From Tubiluchus corallicola (lineage: Eukaryota > Animalia > Priapulida): a stretch of DNA of 64,000 nucleotides. This document shows, in pieces, positions 1 to 52,022 of the stretch (positions are counted from its first letter, which is position 1; each line of letters opens with the position of its first letter). The notes under the pieces are model-generated. The model was not told the origin of the DNA and ran no database searches. It was given only the letters and a program-made list of their open reading frames with translations. The translations under genes were made by a program, and so were the position numbers. The stretch covers positions 124,001 to 188,000 of the forward strand of contig JAQGDQ010000270.1 of the NCBI GenBank assembly GCA_030141605.1, read 5' to 3'.

Positions 1-537
1 TCCAGTTTATTTTCCTATCTAAGCATTCGCTATGAATGGCTAAGCCGTCTGAAACTTTCGTAAGGGCCTGTAACGTCTTGGCAACATTAGTAACATTGTT
101 AGAACATTTAACATAAATCTTTCTTTCTTATTAATCTGTTTATTCACAAAGACTGCTGCCATAATAAGTCTAGATGATGTAACGCCTCGTGGCTTGCACG
201 CTAAAAACAGTGAGGGGAAACCTTAGTGAGCACAAAACATTAAAATATAAACCATAGATAAGAACACGTCACAGGGCCACTGTTTTTTGTTCCATTGGTC
301 ATGCAGCAAAGTTCTATGCATATGATGCACATCACTTTTGGTCATTTCACGCTGAATACATATAAAAAATATAACAATCTAATAATAACTGGAATAACTT
401 CCCAAAATAATATCATTAATTAGTTAGATTATGACAGTGACTGCCAGAGTGTTTATTAACTATTGTAGTTTGTTTTTGACAATTATTACCCATTGTGGGT
501 AATGAGTTGGAGAAAGAAAGCAGACACTGAAAAATTG

Positions 538-609
538 TGGACTAGTCAGAATTTGAACACGAGACCTGGTATTAGTACTTCTATACTCTGTCAACTGAGC
601 TACTAGTTC
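538..609 (-). mobile_element. tRNA-derived SINE head or degenerate tRNA pseudogene (eukaryotic)
   Basis: Minus strand reads GAACTAG TA GCTC AGTTGACA GAGT A TAGAA GTACTAA TACCA GGTC TCGTG TTCAAAT TCTGA CTAGTCC A (72 nt). It has A-box- and B-box-like motifs and acceptor and D stems; the anticodon and T stems are mismatched. Confidence 0.65.
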
Positions 610-832
610 AACGTGACAGAGCAGGTCTGAGATTTCCTCCTTGTAGCACACAATTGCCCAAATATGTGATACATTTCTTAAAACAACAAACAGCTTTCAA
701 AAAATTAAACGGCTTTGTTTAGAAAATTCTGATTTGTAAAACAATTACAATCCTATTGATAGATATCTACTGGACAGTATGACTTGTGTTAATCATCAAA
801 CCATATTAGTACAACATTTTAAGAATTATAAA

Positions 833-936
<104 letters not shown>

Positions 937-1515
937 CGACTGACTGCTGTTGCATTGTTTAGAATAATAATACTAACATAATCAGATCTCAGATTTCTAT
1001 GTTAAGCTCATGAAAGAAAGTAATTTTCCCTGTTCCAAAAATTCTGTATTGACATCCACAAGCGAAAGCAAAGCAGCATGGCAACAGCTATTGGGCTTAT
1101 GTTCTGACATGCTCTCTATTCATTGAGCCTTGTACAAATATCAACGGTGCTCGTAGACAAACTGTCTTTATTTATATAGTTAATTGATAGCTGACCTAGC
1201 ATTATAGCAACCATGGCTACTGATATTGAAAGTGAAAATTACCATGTAGTATTTTTCACGATATGCTGCAAGTAATATAAAAGAATAGATACCGTCTAAC
1301 CACTAAAGTTTTGCATGTATATAAAACGATTAAAGTGTTTGAAGTGCTTTGCCATGTACATAGCTGTTATTTCTCATTCTAGGCCACATTTATGTAACCT
1401 GATCTGATTATGTAAAAACCACTTTGTCAGCCTCTTATACACTCATTTTATTTATAGGTTGTTATTTACGTTTACATGCTAATCTGCAATGTAATGTGAC
1501 CTTTGTATCCATAGG

Positions 1516-1608
1516 ACTTAGGTTCAAACCCAGGCTTAACCTGAGATTTTTCTTAGTTTCACTTAAATTCAGTTTCAGTAATTGAGGGCTTGTTGCATCA
1601 ATATTTTG
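1516..1608 (+). mobile_element. possible 5'-truncated SINE fragment
   Basis: B-box-like GGTTCAAACCC at 1521-1531, then a short body running into a (CTTTA)n tail. Confidence 0.3.
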
Positions 1609-2010
1609 CTTTACTTTACTTTACTTTACTTTACTTTACTTTACTTTACTTTACTTTACTTTACTTTACTTTACTTTACTTTACTTTACTTTACTTTACT
1701 TTACTTTACTTTACTTTACTTCATTTCCCTTTACTTTACTTTCTTTACTTTACTTTACTCTACTCTACTCTACTGTACTCTACTCTACTCTACTCTACTC
1801 TACTCTACTCTACTCTACTCTACTTTACTTTACTTCATTTCCCTTTGCTTCATTTCGCTTTTATTTTATTTTATTTTATTTTATTTTATTTTATTTTATT
1901 TTATTTTATTTTATTTTATTTTATTTTATTTTATTTTATTTTATTTTATTTTATTTTATTTTATTTTATTTTATTTTATTTTATTTTATTTTATTTTATT
2001 TTACTTTACT
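1609..2010. repeat. compound pentanucleotide microsatellite (CTTTA)n-(CTCTA)n-(TTTTA)n
   Basis: Seen directly; it is the source of the spurious ORFs 1582..2121 and 1590..2018. Confidence 0.98.
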
Positions 2011-2042
2011 TGTGTTAATTGTTTTACATGGATCTGTTATAG

Positions 2043-2117
2043 GAATACAAAATTCAGAAAATATTACTGTATTATGATGAAGCAAATCAATGGCCATCAG
2101 CCTACAAACCTGATAAG
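2043..2117 (+). CDS. TMEM145: TMEM145-like protein, internal exon A (EYKIQKILLYYDEANQWPSAYKPDK)
   Basis: tgttatAG acceptor and GTaaga donor, phase 0/0. The peptide matches the recalled TMEM145 motif QNILLYFDDPSQWPAVYK. Confidence 0.88.
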
Positions 2118-2566
2118 GTAAGAATGCGTTTTCTAAAGTCTTTTCAAATGAATTTGTAAATTTGTTTTAATGGCTGTAATATTATTATTTAACTATTACT
2201 AACTTTGCCGAAACCCGACCACGTTGCTGCAACAATTTTTGATTCCGTCATCCAGTCAAAAAAGATATAACGTAATATTTTGAACCACTAAATTCTTTTG
2301 GATATGAAAGGCATGTGCAAAACATTGCGTCACAAAGTGTTTTTCAGCGCCAAATTCATCTCCATTTTTTACAGGAATACGTATTTAATATATTGTTATG
2401 CTTTAATGCATGAGCTTGCATTGTAACACAATGTATATCACGAGTTATTCTATTCTAAAATTTAGCAAAAAAAAAACAATATTCTGATTTCCACAGTTTG
2501 TCTCTGACGTATCCCTACTACTGCATTATAGATACAATTAAGATGAAAGTGAGTTTGTGTTTACAG

Positions 2567-2666
2567 GCGTGTGAAATGAAAGAATCGTTATTGAAACAAG
2601 AAAATGGACAGTTCATCAATCTGACATCAAGTTATTCTTACGCTGGTTGTAGCGAGCTAGCCGAAG
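2567..2666 (+). CDS. TMEM145: TMEM145-like protein, internal exon B (ACEMKESLLKQENGQFINLTSSYSYAGCSELAE)
   Basis: tttacAG acceptor and GTaaac donor, phase 0/1. Matches recalled CxxKESVIRPENNQVINLTxxYxxSGC. Confidence 0.88.
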
Positions 2667-2685
2667 GTAAACATTGACGTATTAA

Positions 2686-3240
2686 CCCTTTCACTACAGA
2701 AGCCAGTATACTGCCACCTGAGCTCAGCACTAAGTACAGTCACTCGGGTAAAGTTTTATTTCACTGCTGTGGCCATGCAGAAACATTGTAGAAAAGTTTA
2801 ACAGCCGTGGGATTGGGGTTGCTTCACAGTAATGCTGTAAACTATCCACTCAACATCTGAAGCCAGGTACATTCCACAATACTGTACTGTATGGTACGTT
2901 CTCATGTAAAATCACATCTTGATGGTTGGTGAAACGTATGTTTAGTCGTTTGTTCTGTATTTCTTATGAAATTATTACATACTATGCATTGGCATTATGA
3001 ACTTTGTGAAAACTGGTTTCTATTTATAAATACGTGCTTATTTATGTGAGAGTGCACATGCGTGCGTGCTTCGTGACTGCATGCATGTGTGCGCATATAT
3101 GTGTGTGCACGTGTACAAATGAAAGCAATATTCATTATTAGTGTTTAATAAAAAATGGCTGTTTTAGTAATGTGCCACAGATAGTCAAATGTGCAAAAGC
3201 CAATGCAGTCCAGTTAAAAAGTAACTACGTAGTGAAAGGG
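2686..3240. mobile_element. non-autonomous piggyBac-type MITE
   Basis: 12-bp TIRs CCCTTTCACTAC (2686-2697) and GTAGTGAAAGGG (3229-3240), each flanked by TTAA (2682-2685, 3241-3244). No internal ORF. Confidence 0.85.
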
Positions 3241-3611
3241 TTAATATTATTTTACAAATATCTTGCTTGTAATGATATACATCATTTGTGCTATTTATAT
3301 TATATCATACATTTATATAATTATTGTACAAAATATTATACGGTATGATGAGCTTGCCAATAATAAGTACTATTTGAAAGTATAAGATTACCTTAATAAT
3401 ATTGTGGCTGTAGTGAGCTTATTGAAGGCAAGCTTTGTAGTGTCTGTTCATTAATTTTCTGAAGATACTCGCTCTTTATCAGCCTAACATCAGACTACCA
3501 ATGTTTTGAATATTTTGTTAAAGGGAAAGAACATGACACAGGCTGATAACCAAACACATACAGTATCATTCGAAAGAAAAATTAAAAATAATGGTTTTGC
3601 TTGCTTATGTA

Positions 3612-3631
3612 TTTACTTCCTTACTTACTTC

Positions 3632-3668
<37 letters not shown>

Positions 3669-3669
3669 C

Positions 3670-3758
<89 letters not shown>

Positions 3759-3960
3759 GCTTTCTTTGCTTTCTTGCTTGCTTGTTATGCATTACTTACT
3801 TACTTACTTGCTTGTTACGTATTTACTTACTTTGCTTACTTGCTTCCTTGCTTGCTTGTTACGCATTACTTACTTACTTTGCTTACTTGCTTCCTTGCTT
3901 GCTTGTTACGCATTTCTTACTTACTTACTTACTGACTTGCTTACTTACTATCTTACTTAT
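3612..3960. repeat. (TTAC)n microsatellite grading into a (TTAC/TTGC) higher-order repeat
   Basis: Seen directly; it is the source of the spurious LTYL-rich ORFs. Confidence 0.95.
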
Positions 3961-4426
3961 TTTTAAGTTTTTAAGCACATTTATAGCTTTAACATTTGAT
4001 AAAGGAGTGATGTTTTTCATGATCTGTTTCTTAATTATTGTAATCTCGTTTGTAATTAAACCGATGCATTAATTTACACAGATCTTATTTTTTGTTGTGT
4101 TGGTAGCTGTGCAAGCATGTGCCAAGCCATTTTTATCAATATTCTATGGAGAGCAACTGGCCGCCAAATGCGTTATATTTATTATTAATAAATCAATTAA
4201 CATGATGTGTTTATCTTTGTCGTACTATGCTAAATTATGCATCAAATATATATCATGCTAGTGACAAATCAGTAAATATCACGAATTCGCCGAATAACCC
4301 AGAAACCGTTTTATTGACAGAATACTAAACTAATGGAAATATATTTTTAAAAAAATTATTACTAGGTATGAAATTCGCAAAGTATCTACGTACTTGGTTA
4401 TAAACTTTGTACGTTGTCACTGTAAC

Positions 4427-4936
4427 CAGACCTGCCAACCATTTGACATAAAAATGAGTGTGAAACGTGGAAAGCCCGGAGGTCATTTAGCGGGTCCAAC
4501 GGAGCAAATTATGCCCATGCCCAAAAGGTTTTGCTTTCTGGGAATCAATATCAAATTACTGGGAATCAATATCAAATTACCAAAAAATTACGACAGCAAA
4601 AAATTAAACTGATTTTTGGGTACTACTGAGCTTTCTTATGCTGTTATTGCAGTTCATTGTGCTTTATATATAATAAATGTTCTCTCATGAAAGAAGCTCA
4701 ATAACATCCTAAAGTGCTTAATTTTCAATACATGTAATAGCCTTTATTGTGAGACTCATGAACACTACTGTATTATTGAGAATAGTACTACTAATTGTGT
4801 TGTGGTTGGTACTGACGGCAAAAGAAGCCAGGTAATTTGCAAACTTGCAAGTCTTGTTAAAACTGAAATCTGATGCGTGTGCACATGTAAAAAGTGCATG
4901 CGACACATGCCTAAAGCATGAGAGTTCACAGGTTTG
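4427..4936. mobile_element. possible degenerate hAT-like MITE
   Basis: Left end CAGACCTGCCAAC and imperfect right end GTTCACAGGTTTG; no TSD recovered. Contains a 21-bp tandem duplication at 4538-4579. Confidence 0.3.
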
Positions 4937-5772
4937 AAACCCTTAATATCTTGCCGATATTGTCGGCAGGAATAAACCAGTCTTCTTTTTCTGCAGACAA
5001 GTTTTGCTCTATTCAGTTCTAGTCAGTTCAGTTTTATTCACTTTTATTGTGTTAGTCTCTTAGCAGAGTTTTTACCAGTGTACAAACTGCACAGAGATAT
5101 TAGATTTTGGGATTATTTTTAATGCTAATGTACAGATTTAACATTAGCTTTGCTCAAAACTTTGCTACTTTTAATTTTTACTACAGTAATGAATAGTACT
5201 TAAGAGTTATTCATTAGGTTTATGAATTAGTTAAAACAGATCATTTTGATTTAAACACGTGACTTACGAAAAGTAATACAAAAAATTTGTTTATACTATG
5301 AGTTTTGTCTTTGTTCAGGAACATTTGTGCACCTTTACCTTTTTAAAACCAATTTTTATTTGATACGCAAAATAATATTCTGCGTAATTTAGTGTAACAA
5401 TTGAACTTTTTGTCTACAATTTGATACAGTGTGTCTAGGAAATACCTGTTTCTAATCAGAGCCTTATAACCTGTATATTTCTTAAGCCTGTTTTCCTACC
5501 ATAAAAAGATAAACGGATCAATTATGCTTTCTTGCTTTTTATCTCCATACTTTCTGCCTATATTTATTGATTTGCTAACTTGATGAAACACTTGAAAGGC
5601 ATGTAGTAAACTGGCTAAAACATCAGTTAGTGTATTATGTGTTAAAATCCTTATAGTTTGTAATAGGCCCAGTAATAAAAGCTATAAAATAATCTTGTAT
5701 TTTGTCCAGCAAGATATGTAACTGATATTGAAATTTTACTCATTCTGGTAAAGACGGGATATTTACTTTCAG

Positions 5773-5870
5773 ATGGTAAACTGTGGATAAAATGTTCCGG
5801 TGGTCGCAGCTTTCGGTCCGCACGGGAACGGTGGTGGTTTATTGCCGTGTCAAATTGCAATTCAACGAAA
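5773..5870 (+). CDS. TMEM145: TMEM145-like protein, internal exon C (DGKLWIKCSGGRSFRSARERWWFIAVSNCNSTK)
   Basis: tactttcAG acceptor and GTgagt donor, phase 1/0, compatible with exon B. Has the hallmark CxxGRSFRSxRERWWxIAxSxC. Confidence 0.92.
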
Positions 5871-6024
5871 GTGAGTTTTCTGTATTTGTTTAATTGCTTA
5901 TCGTAAACTGCTTATGTTAATAATCTTAGTATGTAGAACCAAAAACTGATAAGTGTATAATTTATCTGTAATAGCTGTTTCAATGATAGCGTATTACACA
6001 GATATAAGTGTTTATTTATTCTAG

Positions 6025-6109
6025 GGTCTATATTTAGACTACAAAATTCTGATGACAAATGGTCACCGATCTAACAGGTGGACGTACCATTTCTCAGCCG
6101 ATGAGTTTA
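6025..6109 (+). CDS. TMEM145: TMEM145-like protein, internal exon D (GLYLDYKILMTNGHRSNRWTYHFSADEF)
   Basis: ttattctAG acceptor and GTaagt donor; only frame 0 is open. Has the hallmark MTNG...W..HFSADEF that precedes the 7TM domain. Confidence 0.92.
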
Positions 6110-6115
6110 GTAAGT

Positions 6116-6297
6116 AAAAATTTGTGATAGATGTTCATGAATCCAACCCTGTCTTAGAACTGTTTGCTAGACTTTATTACCTTTTTCAATCAAACAATTG
6201 TCATGTATATTTTCATGTGTACATGTATTAATATTTTATTTTACCTTAGTAAGATTTTGCTATTTTAGCCTTTTGCAAAAACAAATATAATGTTTCC
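6116..6297. other. eukaryote-to-bacterium junction zone
   Basis: Last splice donor at 6110-6115 and first bacterial CDS at 6298, with no N-gap. The breakpoint is probably near 6230-6260 but cannot be placed exactly. Confidence 0.85.
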
Positions 6298-7659
6298 GTG
6301 AGAATACACTTTATTGCTATTGGAGGAGCTGCCATGCACAATCTGGCAATAGCTCTTCATAAAAAGGGCTATGCGGTAACCGGCTCTGATGATGAGATAC
6401 AGGAACCGTCAAGGAGTCGACTCAAGAAGTATGGACTTCTTCCCGAAAATAACGGCTGGGATCCGGATAGGATAGATGGCGGTCTTGATGCGGTGATACT
6501 TGGGATGCATGCCAGAGAGGATAATCCCGAATTGCAAAAGGCGCAAAGCGTAGGTGTAAAAATATATTCATATCCCGAGTTTCTTTACCACAAAACTAAG
6601 GACAAAGCCCGTATTGTTATAGGTGGAAGTCATGGAAAAACAACGATCACATCGATGGTTATGCATGTGCTGGCCCATCTTGAGCTTGAGTTTGATTATA
6701 TGGTTGGAGCCCGGATAGAGGGGTTTGATGTGATGGTAAGGTTAAGTGACTCGGCACAGATAGCAATTTTTGAGGGAGATGAATACCTCTCTTCGCCTAT
6801 CGACAAGAGGCCTAAGTTTCATTGGTATAAGCCTCAGATTGCTCTGTTAACTGGAATTGCCTGGGATCATGTTAATGTTTTCCCCACATTTGAAAACTAT
6901 ATTTCTCAGTTCCGGCAATTTGTGGGTATGATGCCGGACAATGCTATTTTAGTCTATTATGGCGATGATAGCAGATTGATTGAGATTGCAGGAGAGAATA
7001 TGGGCAGGTTAAAAACTGTAAGGTACTTTGAGCATCCTGCCGTTATTAAGGATAATAAGACATATTTAGACAACAGTGGGGAGTTGGTTGGCATAGAGGT
7101 GTTTGGAGGGCATAATCTGCAAAATATTGGAGGAGCAAAGCTTATATGTAATGAACTTGGCATAGGCGATAGCGATTTTTATAATGCCATTAAAGATTTT
7201 AGAGGTGCCGCTTGCAGGCTTGAGGTATTGTCTAAGACAAAAGATAGTATAGTGTTTCGCGATTTTGCTCACTCCCCGTCAAAGCTTGAGGCGACTGTTG
7301 AGGCTGTAAAAAGCCAGTACCCAGAGCGTAAGCTTGTGGCATGTATGGAGCTACACACTTTTAGTAGTCTTAAAGTGGAGTTCCTTCCTCAGTATAGCGG
7401 TTCTATGCGGCTTGCTGACCGGGCAATTGTGTATTATAATCCGGAAACGATAAGCCACAAGCGTCTTGAGCAGATATCTTCGGAACAGGTTAAAGCTGCA
7501 TTTGCCAAAAAGAATATTGAAGTATTTACCGATTCAGGATTGCTTTTTGATGTGCTATCTAAGGTGGATTGGAGCGGGCAAAACCTGCTTTTTATGAGTT
7601 CTGGTAGTTTTTCAGGAAAAGATATTGGCAAGTTTGCATGTAAGCTACACGCAGGCTAA
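6298..7659 (+). CDS. mpl: Mur ligase family, murein peptide ligase Mpl-like
   Basis: HFIAIGGAAMHNLA N-terminus, GSHGKTT P-loop, EGDEY and DFAHSP motifs. Confidence 0.85.
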   Translation: MRIHFIAIGGAAMHNLAIALHKKGYAVTGSDDEIQEPSRSRLKKYGLLPENNGWDPDRIDGGLDAVILGMHAREDNPELQKAQSVGVKIYSYPEFLYHKTKDKARIVIGGSHGKTTITSMVMHVLAHLELEFDYMVGARIEGFDVMVRLSDSAQIAIFEGDEYLSSPIDKRPKFHWYKPQIALLTGIAWDHVNVFPTFENYISQFRQFVGMMPDNAILVYYGDDSRLIEIAGENMGRLKTVRYFEHPAVIKDNKTYLDNSGELVGIEVFGGHNLQNIGGAKLICNELGIGDSDFYNAIKDFRGAACRLEVLSKTKDSIVFRDFAHSPSKLEATVEAVKSQYPERKLVACMELHTFSSLKVEFLPQYSGSMRLADRAIVYYNPETISHKRLEQISSEQVKAAFAKKNIEVFTDSGLLFDVLSKVDWSGQNLLFMSSGSFSGKDIGKFACKLHAG

Positions 7660-7765
7660 AATGTCCAGGCTGGTTAAATACCTTTTTTATAGATATATCT
7701 AAGTTATTAAGTTTGATGCTGGAATAGAAAAGTTATTCTCTAAAAGCTGGTTTTTTGAGCAAAGT

Positions 7766-8510
7766 TTGTATGCTGGAGATTTTTATCACCCATATTGGAC
7801 TAACATTGACTTCTATAGTGACTGGTATTCACATAACAATAAAACATCACTTTCAGGCATACATCATGACTTAATGTCATTAAAGGAGTTACCCATTGAT
7901 AATAATATTGCGGAGATTATTTATTCATCCCATACAGTTGAGCATATTACGGATGAAGCTGCTCAAAAAATGTTTGATGAAGCTTATAGAATTTTAAAAA
8001 AGGGAGGGATTTTGAGAGCTACTACTCCAAACATTGACTTAGGCTATAACGCATTAAAAAATAATGATAAGGGTTTATTTCCCCAGGATTGATCACTACA
8101 GTAAGAAGAAAGCGATGAAAGAGATTAATATTATCAAGCCAATGAAAGATACTTCTATAGAACAAATTTTTCTATATCATTTTGCAGGGAGTGTATCTGA
8201 ATTACATGGAGATGGTGCGGAGGTAAGAGTATCTGACGAGGAATTAAAAAAAGTTTTTTCAGAAAAATCATATGAAGAAGCTCTGAATTACTGCTTATCT
8301 AAGTGTGACTTGGAGGTTCAGGCCAGATATGCGGGAAATCATATAAACTGGTGGAATCCAGATAAGATGACAAGGATGTTCAAAGAAGCTGTATTTACAA
8401 ACATATTCCGGTCAGGTTATGGTCAAAGCCTCTCGCCTGTAATGAGAGATGTTACACTCTTTGACAATACACATCCAAGAATATCCTTATATATGGAGGC
8501 AATTAAATAA
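7766..8510 (+). pseudogene. class I SAM-dependent methyltransferase, frameshifted and 5'-eroded
   Basis: AGDF...YSSHTVEH...EAYRILKKGG...TTPN motifs; split into two overlapping frames near 8075-8090. Confidence 0.7.
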
Positions 8511-8685
8511 AACTACCGTAGCCACATTTTGTATGGGTGATGGGGGGTAAAGCACTAGATTTAAATAGGTAAGACGCGCTCGGGCTGTATTGTGATTTGA
8601 TAGGAAGGTACTACGCGATTTGCCACTACTCATACAAACTTACCGGCATTATCTTTTTTAGTGTGAAGCTTTGCCACTCTCTGGT

Positions 8686-9132
8686 TTCATGTTTTTGGCA
8701 GCCTTGTATTTTCAAAGTGTAGCTTACAGCCAGGCGTGTCATTTTATACGATATACGTTGTGTGTGCTCTCTTTTTGAGTAGTCTGCATGGTAGTACATT
8801 TTGATGTTTTTACAGTGCTCGTTCAGTTTTCTTTGATATGAACTGAGGTTTTTCTCCTTACAAAAGGCTTTACTTTTTCATTTATCAAAGTTTGTTTTTT
8901 GAGCAGGATTTGTATATTTGTTTTATAACTGTTATTAAGATCTGAGAAACAAAAAACTAACTTTATGGCTTACAAGATTATAGAAGATTGCACTGCTTGT
9001 GGAACATGTATTGATGAGTGCCCCGTAGAAGCGATAAGCGAGGGTGATGTATATGTGATTGATCCTGAGGTGTGTGTTGATTCTGCTTCCTGTGTTGATG
9101 TCTGCCCTGTAGAGGCAATTGTGTCTGCGTAG
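8686..9132 (+). repeat. direct repeat copy 1 (non-coding leader plus ferredoxin)
   Basis: Aligns by eye with 11217-11657; the upstream ~230 bp is close to identical. Confidence 0.9.
8965..9132 (+). CDS. clostridial-type ferredoxin, 55 aa, with a variant second cluster motif CVDSASC
   Basis: Hand translation MAYKIIEDCTACGTCIDECPVEAISEGDVYVIDPEVCVDSASCVDVCPVEAIVSA; not in the ORF track. Confidence 0.9.
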   Translation: MAYKIIEDCTACGTCIDECPVEAISEGDVYVIDPEVCVDSASCVDVCPVEAIVSA

Positions 9133-9153
9133 CTCATGGTAATATAACACACT

Positions 9154-9246
9154 GAAGCTGGATTTATAAGTGTATTCTGGTCAAAGTTTCTCGCCTGTAA
9201 TGGGAGATGTTATACTCTTTGACAACACATATCCAAGAGTATCCTT
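9154..9246 (+). repeat. diverged partial duplicate of the methyltransferase 3' end (~8385-8488)
   Basis: Shares ggtcaaag..tctcgcctgtaatg.gagatgtta.actctttgacaa.aca.atccaaga.tatcctt. Confidence 0.85.
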
Positions 9247-9254
9247 CTGGGTGT

Positions 9255-9320
9255 GTATCACAAGCATGCGAAATAATGGGTTATTCCAGCGGTAGTTTCT
9301 ATCGCTTTAAGGAACTTTAT
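9255..9320 (+). pseudogene. IS481-family transposase N-terminal HTH fragment
   Basis: Translates as VSQACEIMGYSSGSFYRFKELY, resembling the recalled IS481-type motif VSQACKIMGYSRDSFYRFKELY. Confidence 0.65.
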
Positions 9321-9546
9321 GGACGAGGTGGTGAAAGCTACACTTCGATACAGTCGAGATTGCTAAGGGTAAGCTAATCGAATACAGAGGAGATTTTTTT
9401 CTTTGAGACCACATCCCAAAATCATGAAGGTGGGTTTAGGTGAAAAATTGCGTGAAGGCAATATTGTAGAGAAATTTAGTAATCCGGAAAATGGAGTGCT
9501 CTAACTAACAGTTCAATTTGTCAGGTCAGGTCCTGTCTAGCACACA

Positions 9547-11216
9547 CTACTCCCTCCAAAAATCTGCCAGAGCTTCTGCCTGACTTAATACTGTTTCTGT
9601 TGCCAGTTTTTGTAAATCCGGGGGATAACCATAACGACGAAGTGTTCTTTTAACGATTACTCTCAGCTTCTTTTTTACTGACTCTTTAACTGTCCAATCT
9701 ATTGTAGCATTGGCTTTCACTTGCTCAACAAGTACCCTTGCAAGCTTTAATAATACTTCATCCCCAAGCATATTTTTAGCACTTTTATTGGATGATACAG
9801 CATCATAGAAAGCAAGCTCATCTTTCGATAAGCCCATTTTTTCGCCACGCCTGTCCGCTTCTTTTATCTCCTTGGCCAGTTCAATCACTTCCTGAATAAT
9901 TTCAGCAGTGGTGATTAAGTTGTTTTGGTAGCGTTTAATGGATGATTCCAACATCTCCTTTAGAGTGCGGCTCTGAACAATGTTGTACTTCGCTCTAGTC
10001 TTAATTTCATCGCGGAGTAGTTTTTTGAGGACTTCCAGGGCAAGGTTCTTATGCTTCATCTCTTTCATCTCCTCAAGGAAGTCGTCATCCAATACAGACA
10101 GTTCCGGCTTTTTAATTCCTGCTGCATCGAAAATATCAACCACCTGTTCAGAAACTATGGCTTTATCAACCACTTGTTTTATAGCTGTTTCAACCTCATA
10201 GTCGGTTTTTCCTCCGGAAGCTTCGCCCATATCTATCTTTTGGATTCGGGCTTTCACAGCCTGAAAGAATGCAATCTTATCTTTGGCATCCATTGCTTTA
10301 TCATGGGGTAGGGCAATTGAGAGCGCTTTTGATAGTGCTGTTACTTCTTTTACATATCTGTTTTTACCATCATCCAAGCTAAGAATATGCTCAACCGCAG
10401 AGATTATTACTTCCAGTTTCTCCTTAATGGGAGCATTGAAATAGCTCTTATAAGCGAATCCATCACCGCCGACCCTGGAGGCAGGTAGGTATGGAACTTC
10501 AGGATCGGCTGCCATAGCGTAGTCAACATGTTGAGTTACAGCACTTTATGAAAGCATTTGAGAAACCACTTCAAGCTTTTCCAACATAAGCTGAACAGCT
10601 TTCTCTTGTGCTTCTGCCGGGTTGCCTTTTCCACCACTATCGGAATAGAAGGACAATGCCTTTTTTAAATCGGATGCGATACCAAAATAGTCTACTACCA
10701 AGCCTCCCGGTTTATCTTTATACACTCGGTTAACCCTTGCTATGGTTTGCATCAGGTTGTGCCCTTTCATCGGTTTGTCGATATATATGGTGTGCATATT
10801 CGGTACATCAAACCCGGTCAGCCACATATCCCGAACAATCACCAGTTTCATTGGGTCTGAGGTGTCTTTTATTCGGTCGGCTAATGCCCTGCGTTCATCT
10901 TTTGAGGTGTGGTGTTTCATCATGCCAGGGCCATCGGATGATGATGCGGTCATTACCACTTTTAAGACATCTTTATCCAAATCATCATAGTGCCAATGAG
11001 GGCATATTTTTATTATTTCATTGTATAGGTCAACAGCGATTTGACGGCTCATGGTAACAATCATTGCCTTCCCCTCAATACCGCTATGTTGTAGGTAAAC
11101 AGGCTTGGTATGGCTTCCTTATAGGTTTGTATCTGTTTGAATGCCGAGTGTAGGGTGGCATTTTCGTCAACAGCATTTTTTAGTTCAAAAATGACCAGGG
11201 GCAGACCATTCACAAA
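9547..11216 (-). pseudogene. hsdR: type I restriction endonuclease subunit R remnant
   Basis: Nuclease motif [13 protein letters not shown] (from ~11216) abuts [20 protein letters not shown] and IARVNR helicase motifs follow, then an in-frame TAA at 10546-10548 and a C-terminal DUF3387-like domain. Confidence 0.88.
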
Positions 11217-11657
11217 TTTCGTGTTTTTGGCAGCCTTGTATTTTCAAAGTGTAGCTTACAGCCAGGTGTGTCATTTTATACGATATATGTTGTGCGTACT
11301 ATCTTTTTGAGTAGTCTGCATGGTAGTACATTTTGATGTTTTTACAGTGTTCGTTCAGTTTTCTTTGATATGAACTGAGATTTTTCTCCTTACAAAGGCA
11401 TTAACTTTTCATTTATCAAAATTTGTTTTTTGAGCAAACTTTGTACATTTGTCTTCTGAATATTTTTAGAATTTTTAAAAAACGAACTTATGGCTTACAA
11501 GATTACAGAAGAGTGCATTGCCTGCGGGACATGTGTTGATGAGTGCCCTGTAGAGGCAATAACTGAAGGTGATATTTATATAATTGATCCTGAATTGTGT
11601 ACCGATTGTGCCTCTTGTGTTGATGTATGTCCTGTGGAGGCAATTGTGCCTGCATAG
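11217..11657 (+). repeat. direct repeat copy 2 (non-coding leader plus ferredoxin)
   Basis: Aligns with 8686-9132 and begins where the hsdR remnant is cut. Confidence 0.9.
11490..11657 (+). CDS. 2[4Fe-4S] ferredoxin, 55 aa
   Basis: Hand translation MAYKITEECIACGTCVDECPVEAITEGDIYIIDPELCTDCASCVDVCPVEAIVPA; two intact CxxCxxCxxxCP motifs. Confidence 0.93.
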   Translation: MAYKITEECIACGTCVDECPVEAITEGDIYIIDPELCTDCASCVDVCPVEAIVPA

Positions 11658-12332
11658 CGAAAGACAGCGTGTTGCCCTACCATACTGGTTGATTGTGGGC
11701 TGGTTTAAACAGAGAGTGTGAAACGGCCCCACCTGGCCTTCCTTGGCTAAAGAGGGTGATCAGGTAGTATAATTCGATTATCCCGGACACTGTTCTGATG
11801 ATATTTTATTTTTTGGAGCGAAGGCTTATTATGGGCTTTTGAAGAGTTCCTCTACCTATCTATTTCGTTTTTTAATAATAAAAATAAGAAGAGCCTTAGT
11901 AAAAGCAACCCCATTATCACAAGAATTTTTGCAGCTTATAGAACAACATGAGCAAGCACCTGCAAATTAGTAATAACCTACCTTGCAGCTGCATACCTAT
12001 TGAGTATTACCAGTAAGCCCCCCTTTTTTATAAAAACGACAACAAAAGCGATAATATCAAACTAAACCAATTTATTTTTACAGCATTAAGCATAGGGTAG
12101 CAGTTCCCTTGAGATTCCTGTATAGAGCGGGTGTGGTATATTGTCACCAAATTTTCTTCAATCAGAGCCTCTAAGATGCCTTTTGCCTTACAAAGGCTTT
12201 GTCGGACCTATCTTACTTTAGCACCTAAAGCAAAATCTTATTATTAACTTTGTGCGAAGGGCGGTTGTGTGTTCTGTCCGGGTATTCCTGTAAAAGGGAG
12301 CTGAGTTAAGTAGTAAGAGTAATTAGATATAG

Positions 12333-31702: not shown

Positions 31703-32830
31703 TCAATCGTAGCACTTTATAATATTATACAGGGTGTCCCTTTCTGTAGGAGTATACCCTGCCTGTGATATCATGTTTATCAATTCTTCAGTGGTTGCTG
31801 TCGGGCTTTGTTCATCTGAGCCGGCCATAGAGTATATTTTTGTTGAGTCGTCAATTGTTCCGTCAAGGTCATCAACGCCAAATGACAAAGATAACTGTGC
31901 CACAGTTTTTCCAGTCATAGGCCAGTAGGCTTTTATATGGGGTATATTGTCGAGAAATAATCTGGAAATAGCATAATTCTTCATGTCTTCTGTCAAAGTT
32001 GCTTCGGCCACATGTGAATAAGCGTTGTTATGGTGTTTGAATTTTAGAGGGATAAACGCATTAAATCCGTTTGTTCTGTCTTGTAAGTTACGCAGGCATG
32101 TCATGTGAGCGATGCGTTGTTCATAGTTTTCCAGTAACCCGTAAAGCATAGTGGAGTTGGAGGGAATATCAAGTTTGTGCGCCTCCTCATGAATTTCTAA
32201 CCAACGAAGTGAGCCTATTTTCTCCGGACATATTTTGCGTCGTAATTTTTCATCAAATATTTCAGCGCCTCCTCCGGGAAGAGATCCTACTCCTGCATTT
32301 TTCAACATTGACAGCCCATGCGATAGAGATACATTGGAGATATTTATCATGTGGTCTATCTCTACAGCCGTAAATGCTTTTATGTGAACATCAGGCAGGG
32401 CTGATTTAATTTTGCCAATGAGTTCTGTATAGAAGTGTATGTCGCGTTCGGGGTGAACACCTCCAACTATGTGAACCTCACTTACATTTGTTCCGACATA
32501 TTTTTCAGCTTTCAATAGTATGTCATCTATATCTGACTCCCAACTCCCTTTTTCTCCTTTTTCGCGACGAAAAGAGCAAAAAGAGCACCTGTTGAGACAT
32601 ATATTGGTCGGCTCGATATGAAAATTGCGATTAAAAAAAGCGTTATTGTCGTTTATTTTTTTCCTGGTATAACTTGACAGAATTGATAGAAAAGGCAGAT
32701 CTCCTTCCAGGTAAAGCAGCAGAGCATCCTCTTCCGTTATCCTTTTACCCTTCAGCGTCTTTTTTGCAACATCCATAAGGCCGGGAGTACTTACATGTTG
32801 CTCCAGTAGTGGAAGCAGGTAGTTTGTCAT
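31703..32830 (-). CDS. mqnE: CofH/MqnC-family radical SAM enzyme, most like aminofutalosine synthase MqnE
   Basis: TNICLNRCSFCSF, EVHIVGG, PGGGAEIF, FIPLKF and HIKAYW motifs. Confidence 0.8.
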   Translation of the reverse strand: MTNYLLPLLEQHVSTPGLMDVAKKTLKGKRITEEDALLLYLEGDLPFLSILSSYTRKKINDNNAFFNRNFHIEPTNICLNRCSFCSFRREKGEKGSWESDIDDILLKAEKYVGTNVSEVHIVGGVHPERDIHFYTELIGKIKSALPDVHIKAFTAVEIDHMINISNVSLSHGLSMLKNAGVGSLPGGGAEIFDEKLRRKICPEKIGSLRWLEIHEEAHKLDIPSNSTMLYGLLENYEQRIAHMTCLRNLQDRTNGFNAFIPLKFKHHNNAYSHVAEATLTEDMKNYAISRLFLDNIPHIKAYWPMTGKTVAQLSLSFGVDDLDGTIDDSTKIYSMAGSDEQSPTATTEELINMISQAGYTPTERDTLYNIIKCYD

Positions 32831-32963: not shown

Positions 32964-33122
32964 CTATCTCTTATGGCGCGACTCATCGGAAACGGTCAAT
33001 TTTTTGCGTCCTTTTGCACGACGGGATTTTAGCACCTTACGGCCACCCACTGTAGACATTCTGTCGCGAAACCCGTGCTTGTTTCTTCTTTTTCTATTAC
33101 TTGGTTGAAATGTCCGTTTCAT
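32964..33122 (-). CDS. rpmH: 50S ribosomal protein L34, 52 aa
   Basis: Hand translation [52 protein letters not shown]; not in the ORF track. Confidence 0.97.
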
Positions 33123-33642
33123 ATCCTTATGTTTCCCAATTAATACTTTTAACTATAAACCTGCGCGATCTTAATCTTTAAAATCACAAACTGCCAAGTT
33201 GCAAAAATAAGTTTTTTTTTTGTAGGTGCAAATGTTATAACCTGCCAGTTGGATATTATAAGTTTAGCCACTCCTCAGCCTGTTAAAGAAATAACAGGAT
33301 TTTGAAGAGGTGAGGATGCCAAAAAGCACGTTATATAAGGGCTTTACAAGATATAACTTTTGATTCGGATTGAGAAAATTCAATGGTGAACCACCCTTTG
33401 TCGAAGCAAATGGGAGTTTTGAAAAAAATATTTAATAAAAGGGTGAGTTCTGTAAAGAGTTCATTCCAATTTTTGATCGATTTTACCTTATAATTACCTG
33501 CTTACTGTTCTTTTGGAGAACGTATCAATTCTTTTTACTTTTGGCATATCTGAATTTTGGCTACAGTGTAATTTACATGGCAAGTGATTGGCCAATTGAT
33601 GCACTGTTGCTGTAGGTTGTAATTTTTAAAGCAATAGATCAA

Positions 33643-44798: not shown

Positions 44799-45365
44799 AT
44801 GGAAAATGCTGAGCTTGTTAAGCGACTTATAGATAGTGATATTGGGGCTTTCAATGAGGTTTACCATAAGTACCTCAATCGTTTATTTGGCTTTGTTTTG
44901 AAAATTATAAAACAGGAGAGCGATGCTGAGGAGATAGTTCAGGAGGTGTTTGTAAAAGTCTGGTCTTCGCGGCACAAGATTAATGATTATGATTCGTTTG
45001 AGTCTTTCCTTTTTACTATTGCCTATAATAATACCATAAGCCTGCTTCGTAAACGGATGAGCGAACAAAAGTATCTCACCCACCTTCAAAGCCAAGTTAC
45101 TTCAGGCAATGTTGTCGATGAGCTTCATTTTAAGGAGCTCAATGAATGCTACCAAAAGGTTATTGAACAACTTACCCCACGACAGAAAGAAATTTATCTG
45201 CTTAGTCGCGAGGATGGCCTAACCTATAACGAGATAGCTGCAAAGTTGGGATTGTCGAAAAATACGGTCGAAATCCACATGACCAAGGCCCTTTCTTTTA
45301 TAAAAAGACGTTTGGGTAAAACGCTGTTGATCAATGTGTTTTTTATTGATCTTTTTATTTTTTGA
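44799..45365 (+). CDS. ECF RNA polymerase sigma-70 factor (Bacteroides expansion type)
   Basis: AEEIVQEVFVKVW and region 4 TYNEIA...SKNTVEIH. Confidence 0.93.
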   Translation: MENAELVKRLIDSDIGAFNEVYHKYLNRLFGFVLKIIKQESDAEEIVQEVFVKVWSSRHKINDYDSFESFLFTIAYNNTISLLRKRMSEQKYLTHLQSQVTSGNVVDELHFKELNECYQKVIEQLTPRQKEIYLLSREDGLTYNEIAAKLGLSKNTVEIHMTKALSFIKRRLGKTLLINVFFIDLFIF

Positions 45366-45503
45366 AAAAAGTCAAAAATAACATAGTGGTATTTTGTCAC
45401 CAAGGCGTATACCTTATTGAGACAGCAATATTTTTTGCATAGGTTTAGTTTGGTTAGATCGATGTACCCCTCTCAGTAATGGAGTGGTACTTTTAAAAGC
45501 ATT

Positions 45504-46571
45504 GTGACAAAAGAACTACTACATAAGTTTTTGAATAACCAGTGCACTTCTGAAGAGTTTCAAGAGGTGGCAGACTGGATAAATACCGATGGTCCGCTTA
45601 TTGATGGCGAAAGGTGGACTTTTGAGGAGTGGCAGAGTTTTAAGGCTGATAAGCAGTATCGCACAACGGCCCAATACCAGTCTATGCTGGGAAGAATCCA
45701 CAGTCAGATTATTTTTGAACAGTTGACAAAAGAAAAGAGAGTGATTAGAAAAAAGGTGCCAATGCTTACCTGGGTCACCCGCGCAGCTGCGGTTTTACTT
45801 CTTCCCACCACTATTTTTTTGTTGCTTATTCTTTCGCAGCATAATTTTGAGCTTACCTCAATGGTCAAAAACGAAATTGATACGATGGAGGTAGTTGCCC
45901 CAGAGGGTTCTAAAACCAGGTTTTTGCTTTCTGACGGAACCGAAGTTTTCCTTAACCATGATAGTTCGCTGAAATATCCCAAGCGCTTCTCGAAAAAGAA
46001 GCGTGAAGTAATCCTTTCTGGTGAGGGGTATTTTAAGGTAGCTCACAACCCTAAACATCCATTTGAAGTAAAGACCAGAAATTTAAATACAGTAGCTCTG
46101 AGAACGGAGTTTAATGTGCTTGCCTATCCTGGTGAAAAGATGGCAGAGGTTACACTGGTGAATGGAAAAGTAGCTGTTGAAAAAATAACAGAGGGTGGCG
46201 AGTTAAAAATGTTGGGAGAGATGGTTTCCGGACAACACATCACTTATCATATCAGTGAAGATAAGGTTACCGGAGGGCGTGGCAGCGTGGCTAAAAATAT
46301 TTCGTGGATCGAAGGGAGGTTGATTTTTCGCAACGATCCCATCGACCAGATTGCAAGCCGTCTGAGCCGATGGTATAATGTGGAGTTTGAATTTGCTGAC
46401 GACGAGGTTAAAAAGTATACCTATACGGCAACTTTTATGGATGAAACACTTGTTCAAGTGCTTGATCTGATGTCAATTGCAGCGCCTGTTTCCTATAGGC
46501 TTGAAGCAAGAGAGAAACTATCCGATGGTACATTTACCAAACAGAAGGTTACTATTTATTTAAAGAGATAA
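45504..46571 (+). CDS. FecR-family anti-sigma factor
   Basis: TM helix, LSDGTEVFLN, LSGEGYFKV and RLSRWYNV motifs. Confidence 0.92.
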   Translation: MTKELLHKFLNNQCTSEEFQEVADWINTDGPLIDGERWTFEEWQSFKADKQYRTTAQYQSMLGRIHSQIIFEQLTKEKRVIRKKVPMLTWVTRAAAVLLLPTTIFLLLILSQHNFELTSMVKNEIDTMEVVAPEGSKTRFLLSDGTEVFLNHDSSLKYPKRFSKKKREVILSGEGYFKVAHNPKHPFEVKTRNLNTVALRTEFNVLAYPGEKMAEVTLVNGKVAVEKITEGGELKMLGEMVSGQHITYHISEDKVTGGRGSVAKNISWIEGRLIFRNDPIDQIASRLSRWYNVEFEFADDEVKKYTYTATFMDETLVQVLDLMSIAAPVSYRLEAREKLSDGTFTKQKVTIYLKR

Positions 46572-46721
46572 ACCTGACTATAAACTAAAACTTGTCCTGC
46601 TTATGATGAAACAACCAATTTTAAAAAACAGCAGCGGGGAGGTGTGCTGATGTCTCTCTGTAAATTGTAAAGCAAATCTCTAGTCAAAGAGAAACCACTA
46701 AACTTTTAACACTTTAAAAGA

Positions 46722-49700
46722 ATGACAAAAAATAATTATGAGCTGGATTTGAAGACTCTGACTTTCAAAACGATTAAAGCTCTAAAACTAATGAAATTAA
46801 CGGTTCTTGTTCTTCTAATTTCGGCATTGGGCACAGCAATGGCGAGCGAGACCTACTCGCAAACCAAGAGATTGACACTAGAGGCGGGCAACGTGATGGT
46901 GAAAGAGGTGCTAGCCAAAATTGAGTCTCAAAGTGAGTTTCACTTTTTGTATAGTGAAAAAGTCGTAGATGTTAACAGGAGGGTTAATGTTGAATTTGAG
47001 GATCAGAAAATTGAAGACGTACTTAATTTACTGTTCGCCGGTACCGATATTACCTATGTTATAAAGGACAGGATTATTGTTTTGTCGTCGACAGGAGTTG
47101 TTGAAGACAGTGCCGGTACTGCTCAGCAGCAGGCTGTAGTCAGAGGGAAGGTTACTGACACCAACGGAGAGCCCTTGCCAGGAGTTACCATACTTGTAAA
47201 AGGTACCACCAATGGAACAGTTTCGAAAGGCGACGGAAGCTACGGACTAAATGTAGAAGACGACGATGCTATACTGGTTTATTCATTTATCGGATTTGCT
47301 TCCCAGGAAATTGAGGTAGCCGGAAAAACCACTATTAATGCTATTATGCAAACTTCCGCCATTGATATTGATGAGGTTGTGGCCATAGGTTACGGAATGC
47401 AGAAGAAGGTAAACCTAACCGGGTCGGTAACTTCGGTAAAAGCTGAAGAACTGCAAGATATCCCGGTGGCAAACCTTTCGAATGCTATGGCAGGTCGTGC
47501 TCCAGGGGTTCAGGTTGTTGGAACTTCTGGTTTGGCTGGTGCTACTTCAAGCATAAGAATCAGGGGAGGTATTAGCGAGCCCCTTTTTGTTATTGACGGG
47601 GTGATCTCAGGGAAATCGGATTTTGATGCGCTTGACCCCAGTGAAGTGGAGAGTATTAACTTTCTGAAAGATGCGGCTAGTGCTGCCGTATATGGGGCCA
47701 AGGCAGGTAATGGTGTTGTTATTATTACTACAAAAAGCGGAGGTGAGCATAAGCCAAGGTTTAGCTTCAAGTCCTCTTTCTCCACTTCCCGTACAACAAA
47801 GCCTATCCAAAGTTATACAGCAGCACAGGAGCTTGAGTATGTAAACAGAATGATGGAAACCCGTGGACAGCCAATGCCCTATGGACAGAATATTATGGAT
47901 TATTTCAAAGACAAAAGCTATGATATTAATGATCTAATCTGGCAAAATCCTTCGGTTCAGCAACACAATATTAGTGTTGACGGCGGCTCGGATAAGATTA
48001 GATACTATATGTCTCTGGGCTATCATACCGAGGATGGTTCGTATCATAATACAAATTACGATCGTTACAATTTCCGTTCTAACGTAACAGCACATATTAC
48101 CGATCGTTTTAAAATTAACCTAAACATCAGTGGTAATCAACGAAACTATGACCGTTGGTATTGGCCATATGATGGAGCTGAAAACTTTAACGTTACTGAT
48201 TGGTATCGTGCAACTTTTAACTGGACACGTTTATATCCGTTTTATACCGATGCTGATGGCAATCCAACGAATGATCCAAATGACTATCCTGTTCGTCCGG
48301 CAGGTGGTTATCACCCTCCTGAAATCATGCTAAATGGTGGTTATCGTCAAACTAAGCACCGCTCGTTTAATGGAATTTTGCGGTTTGATTTAGATTTTAG
48401 CGAATATGTAAAAGGCTTGTCAACTTCTGTTCAGGCCAATCTGAATGCTTACGATAGAAATATGAAATCATACATTGTTCATAACGAATGGTATGTTTTC
48501 CAATCGGGAAGTACCGAAAATCAATTTATCCCTGGTCCGATTGATTTCACAAAGACAGCATCACACAATTTAAGTGCACAATATCCAAAGATTGAGGAGA
48601 GCGTAGATCTAAAAAGTGCTTACCAGCTTAACTGGTTTATTAACTACGAAAGAGAGTTTGGCTATCATAACATTTCAGCTGTTGCTATTTACGAGCAGGC
48701 AGAGAATAGTAGTAAATGGCTTAATGGACAAGCTGAAGATTTACTTTCGACAAATATAGATCAAATTTTCAACGCTTCATCTGATCCTGAAAGAAGACAC
48801 TTCAGTGGAGGAGAGAGCGAAGGCGCAAGTGCATCTTATATTGGTCGAGCAAGTTACAACTTTGCATCAAAATATATTGCTGAATTTTCATTCAGATACG
48901 ATGGTAACTATCGTTTTGCTCCAGGCAGTCGCTGGGGATTTTTTCCGTCATTTTCTGCAGGTTGGAGGCTTTCTGAAGAAGATTTTATGAAAGGTGTAGA
49001 CTGGTTATCCAACCTAAAATTACGTGGTTCATATGGGACAACCGGCTCTCTTGAAAACATTAGTGGTACCGCTATAGCTCCCTGGCAATGGACAAACTAC
49101 TACAACAAAGCATCTGGTTTTATATTCGGGACAACATACCAGGATGGGATATCGCCGGGAACTATGCCAAATCCTAATATTACCTGGTCAACCATTAAAA
49201 ACTGGAACTTCGGTTTGGAATATGGATTATTTAATAATAGATTGACCGGGGAGTTTGATATTTGGAGTAAAAATATCAGTGATATTCTTGGCCCCAGGTC
49301 GGGGTCAACTCCAACAACATTAGGTGCCGATTTACCATGGGAAAATTATGCCGAACGTAAATGGAATGGTTTCGAAATTTCAGCAACTTATAAGAACAGG
49401 ATTGGTGGTGAACTGTATTATGAGGTGTACGCCAACATGGGGTATGCCATTGATGAATGGGTGGTTTATGATGAGCCTGAATCTTACACTGATGGAACCT
49501 ATAAAGATAATTGGAGAAGTCGTATTGGAAAACCATCTGCAAGAGTTGGAGGCCTGATTTCGAAAGGAATTATCCGTACACAAGAGCAGTTGGATGCCAT
49601 CCCCGAAGGCTATACAGTTTTTGGTCGCGAACCGCAAATTGGCACAATATTATTTGAGGATATAAGAGGGGACGATTACTCGGAAGGGCCTGACGGAAAA

Positions 49701-50225
49701 ATCGACAATAACGACTGGACATATCTGAGCGATAACGGTGCACCCCGTATAAACTATGGTTTTGGAACTAATCTTGAGTGGAAAGGCATAAAGGTAAATG
49801 CCCATTTTCAAGGTGTTGGTGCGTATGATAGAATGGTTGCAACAAAAAACACTAGTAGCGGGGGCGTATTCCAGAGTGATCGTCCTTACTTCGAACTTTG
49901 GGCAGACAATTATTGGACACCTGAAAACCCGGATGCTAAATATCCAAGAGTTGCAGGTTACATGAATCAATCTGAGTTTGGTGGCGGTCCATCTTCATTC
50001 TGGGTAAGGAATGGTGCATATTTACGTTTGAAAAACCTAAACATTCGCTATTCTCTACCCAATATCTGGTTTGAAAGAGTTGGGTTGAATGACATTCAGT
50101 TATACTTTAATGGAACCAACTTGTTTGTGATTTCCGGATTTAAAGAGCATGACCCGGAACAGGCAACACTGGATTCATATCCTCTTATGAAAACCTTTAC
50201 AGGTGGTTTAAGTATTAATTTCTAA
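46722..50225 (+). CDS. susC: SusC/RagA TonB-dependent transducer with N-terminal STN domain
   Basis: EVVAIGYG, LKDAASAAVYG..AGNGV, RYDG.YRF and C-terminal F; alternative start at 46791. Confidence 0.95.
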   Translation: MTKNNYELDLKTLTFKTIKALKLMKLTVLVLLISALGTAMASETYSQTKRLTLEAGNVMVKEVLAKIESQSEFHFLYSEKVVDVNRRVNVEFEDQKIEDVLNLLFAGTDITYVIKDRIIVLSSTGVVEDSAGTAQQQAVVRGKVTDTNGEPLPGVTILVKGTTNGTVSKGDGSYGLNVEDDDAILVYSFIGFASQEIEVAGKTTINAIMQTSAIDIDEVVAIGYGMQKKVNLTGSVTSVKAEELQDIPVANLSNAMAGRAPGVQVVGTSGLAGATSSIRIRGGISEPLFVIDGVISGKSDFDALDPSEVESINFLKDAASAAVYGAKAGNGVVIITTKSGGEHKPRFSFKSSFSTSRTTKPIQSYTAAQELEYVNRMMETRGQPMPYGQNIMDYFKDKSYDINDLIWQNPSVQQHNISVDGGSDKIRYYMSLGYHTEDGSYHNTNYDRYNFRSNVTAHITDRFKINLNISGNQRNYDRWYWPYDGAENFNVTDWYRATFNWTRLYPFYTDADGNPTNDPNDYPVRPAGGYHPPEIMLNGGYRQTKHRSFNGILRFDLDFSEYVKGLSTSVQANLNAYDRNMKSYIVHNEWYVFQSGSTENQFIPGPIDFTKTASHNLSAQYPKIEESVDLKSAYQLNWFINYEREFGYHNISAVAIYEQAENSSKWLNGQAEDLLSTNIDQIFNASSDPERRHFSGGESEGASASYIGRASYNFASKYIAEFSFRYDGNYRFAPGSRWGFFPSFSAGWRLSEEDFMKGVDWLSNLKLRGSYGTTGSLENISGTAIAPWQWTNYYNKASGFIFGTTYQDGISPGTMPNPNITWSTIKNWNFGLEYGLFNNRLTGEFDIWSKNISDILGPRSGSTPTTLGADLPWENYAERKWNGFEISATYKNRIGGELYYEVYANMGYAIDEWVVYDEPESYTDGTYKDNWRSRIGKPSARVGGLISKGIIRTQEQLDAIPEGYTVFGREPQIGTILFEDIRGDDYSEGPDGKIDNNDWTYLSDNGAPRINYGFGTNLEWKGIKVNAHFQGVGAYDRMVATKNTSSGGVFQSDRPYFELWADNYWTPENPDAKYPRVAGYMNQSEFGGGPSSFWVRNGAYLRLKNLNIRYSLPNIWFERVGLNDIQLYFNGTNLFVISGFKEHDPEQATLDSYPLMKTFTGGLSINF

Positions 50226-50238
50226 AAATAACAGAGAG

Positions 50239-51996: not shown

Positions 51997-52022
51997 CTAG
52001 TTAATTTATTTAAATGTTTATT

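Follow-up and report, generated by a model that had tools for sequence, protein, structure and literature searches.

A TMEM145 intron joined to bacterial DNA in an animal genome assembly: very likely a host-cobiont chimera, not gene transfer

Cardinium, a symbiont, belongs to the Bacteroidota. Nine loci assigned to it are reported from ants, in a study that applied border filtering in 163 ant genomes (PMC13320244). In the tsetse fly Glossina morsitans, two Wolbachia insertions of about 0.5 Mb have been described, and these chrWol insertions were validated by Southern blot and FISH (PMC3998919). The stretch of DNA considered here (the window, 64,000 nt in length) resembles the Glossina case in that a contiguous piece of bacterial genome, tens to hundreds of kb long, is attached to animal DNA in an assembly. 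Unlike the situation with chrWol, tests of bridging and of depth fail here, and the donor groups with the Prolixibacteraceae, not with a known germline symbiont.

Bacterial sequence in an animal assembly has also been mistaken for transfer, as the re-analysis of the tardigrade Hypsibius dujardini reports; there, long reads confirmed only 25 of the informative junctions (bioRxiv 10.1101/033464). Cobiont DNA and chimeric sequences are described as routine in such projects (PMC11016177, PMC8862208). As far as those reports describe them, the false transfers in the tardigrade and the ants are like the present locus in having bacterial sequence in an animal assembly, coverage unlike that of the host, and a border lacking support. 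They differ in that the join studied here is gap-free and lies inside an intron of a conserved gene, and it was tested on public contigs only. A full-text literature search, covering titles and abstract openings and with most subscription papers outside its scope, returned no Prolixibacteraceae-to-animal transfer.

We conclude that the join at 6249|6250 is very likely a host-cobiont assembly chimera and not gene transfer, a verdict that draws on contigs only, on a host contig across the join that belongs to the other haplotype, and on three runs (X1, X2 and X3) that represent one sample. Public runs were searched with positions 3970-7660; six were listed, four of them holding part of the stretch, and the contigs of five runs (X1, X2, X3, X4 and X6) were compared, the share for X5 being 0.00. 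The set of records over 5760-6560 is complete and numbers 12 (seven from X1, two each from X2 and X4, one from X6), while the comparison over the wider stretch used 32 of 643 pieces. These are contigs, not reads: rare paths are dropped, some records are filtered out, and contig depth does not equal copy number.

Positions 1-6249 are AT-rich (GC 0.32), with microsatellites of TTAC and TTTAC, and carry four TMEM145 exons on the plus strand. Exon A (2043..2117, phase 0/0) matches the N-terminal domain PF21892 (TMEM145_N) with an E value of 7e-6 and aligns at 56% to a full-length krill (Meganyctiphanes) protein, P0125. Exon B (2567..2666, phase 0/1) matches the same domain with E 7e-5, and exon C (5773..5870, phase 1/0) with E 1e-11, so that three of the four exons, taken singly, match PF21892 (E 1e-11 to 7e-5). 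Exon C is 80-88% alike to animal homologs. Exon D (6025..6109, phase 0/1), which ends HFSADEF plus one nucleotide at a gtaagt donor at 6110, aligns at 57% to both the krill protein and an annelid (Dimorphilus) homolog, P0124, and gave no Pfam match alone. AG acceptors and GT donors flank all four exons in compatible phases; all four align collinearly within the N-terminal portion of the krill protein, and three of them with the annelid homolog as well. When exon C was extended by 11 intron codons and used as a query, it matched 12 proteins, every one with PF21892, those with names being the annelid and krill proteins; the protein matches of these exons support an invertebrate host.

TMEM145 family proteins combine PF21892 with PF10192, the GPR180/TMEM145 membrane domain, which is present in both P0124 and P0125. 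The window exons are collinear with the family up to HFSADEF, but unlike the full homologs the window has no exons for the PF10192 domain, nor any further TMEM145 exon downstream within its 64 kb, the best other tblastn match having an E value of 1.3. Membrane-domain exons are expected to be missing if the contig is misjoined in this intron. Splice ends, domain matches and homolog alignment thus agree with the first-pass annotation, which had described four phase-compatible exons ending HFSADEF before gtaagt at 6110 and no later TMEM145 exons in the window. One contig from run X6, a run only guessed to be RNA, links the end of exon B (loose end at 5771) to exon C and exon C to exon D, skipping a 154-nt GT..AG intron. 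This contig has 7 differences from the window in 100 letters of exon C and ends inside exon D, so it is uninformative on the next exon; it documents the expected exon joins, either in another individual or in a close relative. A dispersed high-copy host repeat occupies 4427-4848, within the long TMEM145 intron; its summed X1 depth is in the thousands, loose ends are numerous, and termini are shared near 4427, 4612 and 4848. The two host haplotypes are strongly divergent over 5407-6249: about 790 nt hold 37 substitutions as well as indels, two of which are a deletion of 12 nt at 6122 and an insertion of 64 nt after 6194.

From 6250 to 64000 the window is a Bacteroidales chromosome stretch of 57.75 kb, open at the window end, as judged from its gene content, an X1 contig, a Mur-ligase tree and a DnaB search. 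From 6298 on it contains 40 non-shadow ORFs of at least 100 aa, which cover 84% of 6250-64000. Bacteroidota markers found beyond the join are GldH, the T9SS proteins PorW and PorX, and SusC; other genes encode MetH, MetF, DnaB, D-Ala-D-Ala ligase, methylmalonyl-CoA mutase and a SusC/SusD-like pair. No tandem repeat occurs after 4580, the bacterial part being free of the host microsatellites, and no tRNA, Rfam match or 16S was found within the window. The first gene, at 6298..7659 on the plus strand, is an intact Mpl/MurC-like Mur ligase of 453 aa with a GTG start and three Mur ligase Pfam domains. It scores below both NCBIfam cut-offs, with 226 of 335.1 bits for murC and 168.5 of 388.7 bits for mpl (TIGR01081); "Mpl" is a label applied to this Bacteroidota group. 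The earlier statement that Bacteroidota genes fill the rest of the window is borne out. So is the placing of a bacterial ligase gene soon after exon D with no gap, although its name, mpl, is not carried by the family score. The claim of intact core genes free of host microsatellites is correct in both respects, with the amendment that accessory genes are broken at 7.7-11.7 kb.

The boundary 6249|6250 falls after the first 140 nt of the intron, and 48 nt separate it from the ligase start codon downstream. It is gap-free, the window containing no N, and blunt, since the two continuations and the window have a single base in common at 6250 (a T). When the 200 nt before the join are compared with the 200 nt after it, the longest common word has 8 nt and lies away from the join, and no repeat or IS end was found at the join except a 26-nt, 77%, three-copy family that we judged to be chance. 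A composition change-point locates the switch only roughly, at 6250-6350, and the CpG ratio fails to separate the two sides (0.61 vs 0.62-0.80). We considered the AG at 6248-6249 as the acceptor of a next exon and rejected it, as the X2 continuation is, by eye, unlike the next residues of the homologs (YILETN, YILRTN).

At the contig level, none of the 12 records bridges 6249|6250, and loose ends are present on both sides. A bacterial contig of 12,888 nt from X1 (depth 55.5) has as its last 2,470 letters positions 6250-8719 with 0 differences, and it passes 6250 unbroken to extend 10,418 nt upstream, into sequence that is not the host intron. The X2 bacterial contig (1,435 nt) extends 914 nt beyond 6250, with the same 30 upstream letters as in X1, and the X3 bacterial contig extends 8 nt beyond 6250. 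On the host side, the first 140 nt of the intron that follows exon D (6110..6249, plus strand) are covered by two X1 haplotype contigs that both reach 6249, at depths of 93.5 and 74; the first is the window's own haplotype (0 differences, depth 75-93.5 overall) and the other is the second haplotype (74-85 overall). An X2 host contig of 1,076 nt carries exon C, exon D and base 6250 and then runs 172 nt on into AT-rich DNA unlike the bacterial sequence. This contig belongs to the other haplotype, and the window's own was traced only to 6249; from both haplotype contigs ending together, we infer that the window's haplotype continues past 6249 as well. Neither continuation, host or bacterial, recurs elsewhere in the window. 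Each side therefore continues in its own context, the host side by way of the other haplotype only, and no independent sequence among the 12 contig records bridges the boundary.

Because one X1 host haplotype and the bacterial 6250-8719 both match with 0 differences, X1 represents the same or a near-identical individual and strain, and its sample may be the source of the window. If so, X1 provides independent support for neither side, yet it is the right place to seek the join. In run X4, from another study, host pieces are identical to the window up to 6238 and the one bacterial piece shown, 7529-7673, has 0 differences; these pieces stop short of the join, and missing cover elsewhere is no evidence. 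The X2 and X3 contigs also break around 7529-7673, a stretch that may have a second copy elsewhere.

Depth changes at the join as well, and the direction of the step reverses between runs: from 167.5 on the host side to 55.5 on the bacterial side in X1, from 5.95 to 30.5 in X2, and from 3.45 to 12.8 in X3. Relative to a single host contig, bacterial depth is about 0.6-0.75 in X1, 5-6 in X2 and about 4 in X3, so that the bacterial-to-host ratio shifts about 7-10-fold between runs of one sample. By these rough contig depths, the bacterial side is not at host or half-host depth in every library (55.5 vs 74-93.5 in X1, 30-36 vs 5.95 in X2, 13-14 vs 3.45 in X3). The bacterium is nonetheless abundant in the sample, its contig depth being about a third of the host diploid depth in X1. 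Host depth in X2 and X3 is about 3-6 and bacterial depth 13-36, and several of their contigs have one-letter deletions, as error-prone long reads would give.

The first-pass annotation had presented a bacterial chromosome starting inside an intron, with a recent insertion or a misjoin as its explanation. The proposed start is contradicted by the bacterial DNA continuing upstream of 6250, and the misjoin or artefact reading fits the separate continuations, the lack of a bridging record and the depth step. Two of the signs it had named for an artefact, bacterial DNA upstream of the ligase (10,418 nt in X1) and a depth step at the junction, were both found on contigs. Of the host continuing past the join into ordinary host DNA, what we could see is the other haplotype (172 nt, X2), the window's own reaching 6249 only, and its question about spanning reads has an answer at the contig level, where the count is 0 of 12.

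The bacterium is likely a member of the Prolixibacteraceae, going by its sequence. Its Mur ligase groups with Mariniphaga and Tangfeifania rows with support of 99/96 in a single-gene tree of 46 rows (the 45 best full-length loci among L001-L081, with the window added), and its DnaB is 83% to one JGI metagenome protein, the best named match being Prolixibacter denitrificans at 73%. The ligase clade and the best named DnaB agree on this family (Mariniphaga, Tangfeifania, Prolixibacter), a placement that depends on a one-gene tree plus DnaB matches. The best relative of the ligase is at 67% among the best 80 of 576 genome loci and at 65% among the best 80 of 563 metagenome loci. Thus no close relative was found in the databases searched, the ligase reaching no more than 67-68% and DnaB no more than 83%, and an exact 43-nt search of metagenome contigs gave 0 matches. 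The gene upstream of the ligase varies among relatives, being a divergent metallo-hydrolase-type gene in 33 of 125 loci (35 of 160 loci were excluded for a short flank or a partial match). As a weak lead, the opposite strand of the bacterial loose end appears by eye to start M-T-V-N-L-H, faintly like metallo-hydrolase-type genes (MNLHS, MKLHK). A TAnnTTTG motif, which we take to be the Bacteroidota -7 element, lies at 6282..6289 on the minus strand and points at the join; it is possibly the promoter of a divergent bacterial gene removed by the join, and the window shows no enrichment of the motif (88 copies, against 77.6 +/- 8.3 in shuffles).

A real and very recent germline insertion, placing at least 57 kb of bacterial DNA in one TMEM145 allele with a free-living donor also in the sample, is scarcely credible on these data. 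Large symbiont insertions do exist, as with Wolbachia in tsetse (PMC3998919), and ants have their nine Cardinium-derived loci (PMC13320244). One sample contains both the bacterial DNA and the haplotype of the window, the join has no N gap, and a free donor would explain the contigs that continue upstream; moreover, since it is the other haplotype that runs on across the join into host DNA, that X2 contig taken alone would permit an insertion on the window's own haplotype alongside a free donor. However, a copy inserted on that haplotype should bring the bacterial stretch to a depth of at least 75 in X1, and an insertion plus a free donor should exceed the host, whereas the 55.5 seen is lower than the depth of each host haplotype (74-93.5). 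At such a depth a junction path should also split the bacterial contig near 6280, to judge from how k-mer contigs are built (k = 31, from the 30-nt contig overlaps), yet that contig is unbroken over the join and none of the seven X1 records bridges it. The 7-10-fold variation of the depth ratio between runs likewise argues against an insertion, as do the bacterium's relatives of the Mariniphaga/Tangfeifania type, presumably free-living organisms and not intracellular germline symbionts. The state of the genes is compatible with either origin: core genes are intact, a few accessory genes are broken, and the X1 bacterial contig has the same letters to 8719, but a very recent insertion would look intact too. 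The variant in which a marine-type Prolixibacteraceae member very recently inserted at least 57 kb into the TMEM145 intron in an individual or a subset of cells absent from the public contigs strikes us as very improbable.

We also considered a rare real molecule, either a somatic or mosaic join or a PCR or whole-genome-amplification chimera present in several copies, too rare to enter the contigs. Contigs do lose rare variants, and the join sits exactly at the end of both X1 host contigs. That shared end would be explained without any junction by a haplotype bubble closing at a difference 30 nt upstream, there being one other letter in 6195-6249; an amplification chimera would still be an artefact, and a somatic join is without positive support. 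Such a molecule is accordingly a most improbable source of the join.

In the assembly chimera that we favor, the TMEM145 intron would have been joined at base 6249 to an internal point of the chromosome of a co-sequenced bacterium. The seed was probably one or a few chimeric long reads, formed by ligation or amplification, and in a library with thin host depth and abundant bacterial DNA such reads may not have been outvoted. TMEM145 would in that case be intact and resume on another contig, and the bacterium, carried in or on the animal, would form a replicon of its own. The agreement to the base between the join and the end of both X1 host contigs, which has a chance of about 1% by a rough estimate, is not fully explained by this account: a bubble closing at 6249 would account for the shared contig end, but not for its match with the join. 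The coincidence may mean that the assembly pipeline joined sequences at a break in a short-read graph.

Very likely, then, a host contig in the assembly has at least 57 kb of bacterial genome attached to it. The TMEM145 gene model would be cut short as a result, and about 40 genes would falsely appear as "horizontally transferred". For curation, we recommend splitting the contig at 6249|6250. The real content is a co-sequenced bacterium having no close relative in the databases searched, which can probably be assembled from the same runs and which could be either a stable associate of the animal or an environmental passenger. If an insertion were true instead, large bacterium-to-animal transfer would be extended beyond Wolbachia-type symbionts, to a lineage of Bacteroidales that is not known for germline symbiosis.

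The broken accessory genes of the bacterial stretch lie at 7.7-11.7 kb, core genes being intact. A class I SAM methyltransferase at 7703-8510 (plus strand), with PF08241 in its first part, is spread over two frames with a break near 8058-8092; since the X1 contig has identical letters, the break seems to be the bacterium's own rather than an error in the window. A type I restriction subunit, HsdR, lies in three pieces at 9547-11243 on the minus strand (a C-terminal part, a D3 domain and a short HSDR_N fragment), with most of the N-terminal and helicase region missing. On either side of it, 8674-9133 and 11206-11658 form a duplicated segment, 81-88% alike, bearing two small 4Fe-4S ferredoxin genes (8929-9132 and 11460-11657), and the end of the X1 bacterial contig at 8719 falls inside the first copy. 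At 9175-9377 (plus strand), a 72-nt copy (89%) of the 3' part of the methyltransferase precedes a short relic of helix-turn-helix type (PF13551, E 3.5e-4), which we take to resemble the start of an IS481-like transposase.

Farther along, an MqnE-like radical SAM gene of the futalosine menaquinone route is found at 31703-32830 (minus strand), just below its cut-off with 430 of 434.6 bits. A small ORF at 32967-33152 (minus strand), absent from the 100-aa list, reads like ribosomal protein L34 (rpmH). An IS256-family transposase that passes its NCBIfam cut-off is located at 55021-56217 (minus strand). Just before it, at 44799-54950 on the plus strand, an ECF sigma factor, a FecR-like anti-sigma factor, SusC, a SusD-like gene and a 978-aa protein with a faint Pfam match make up a locus of the polysaccharide-utilisation type.
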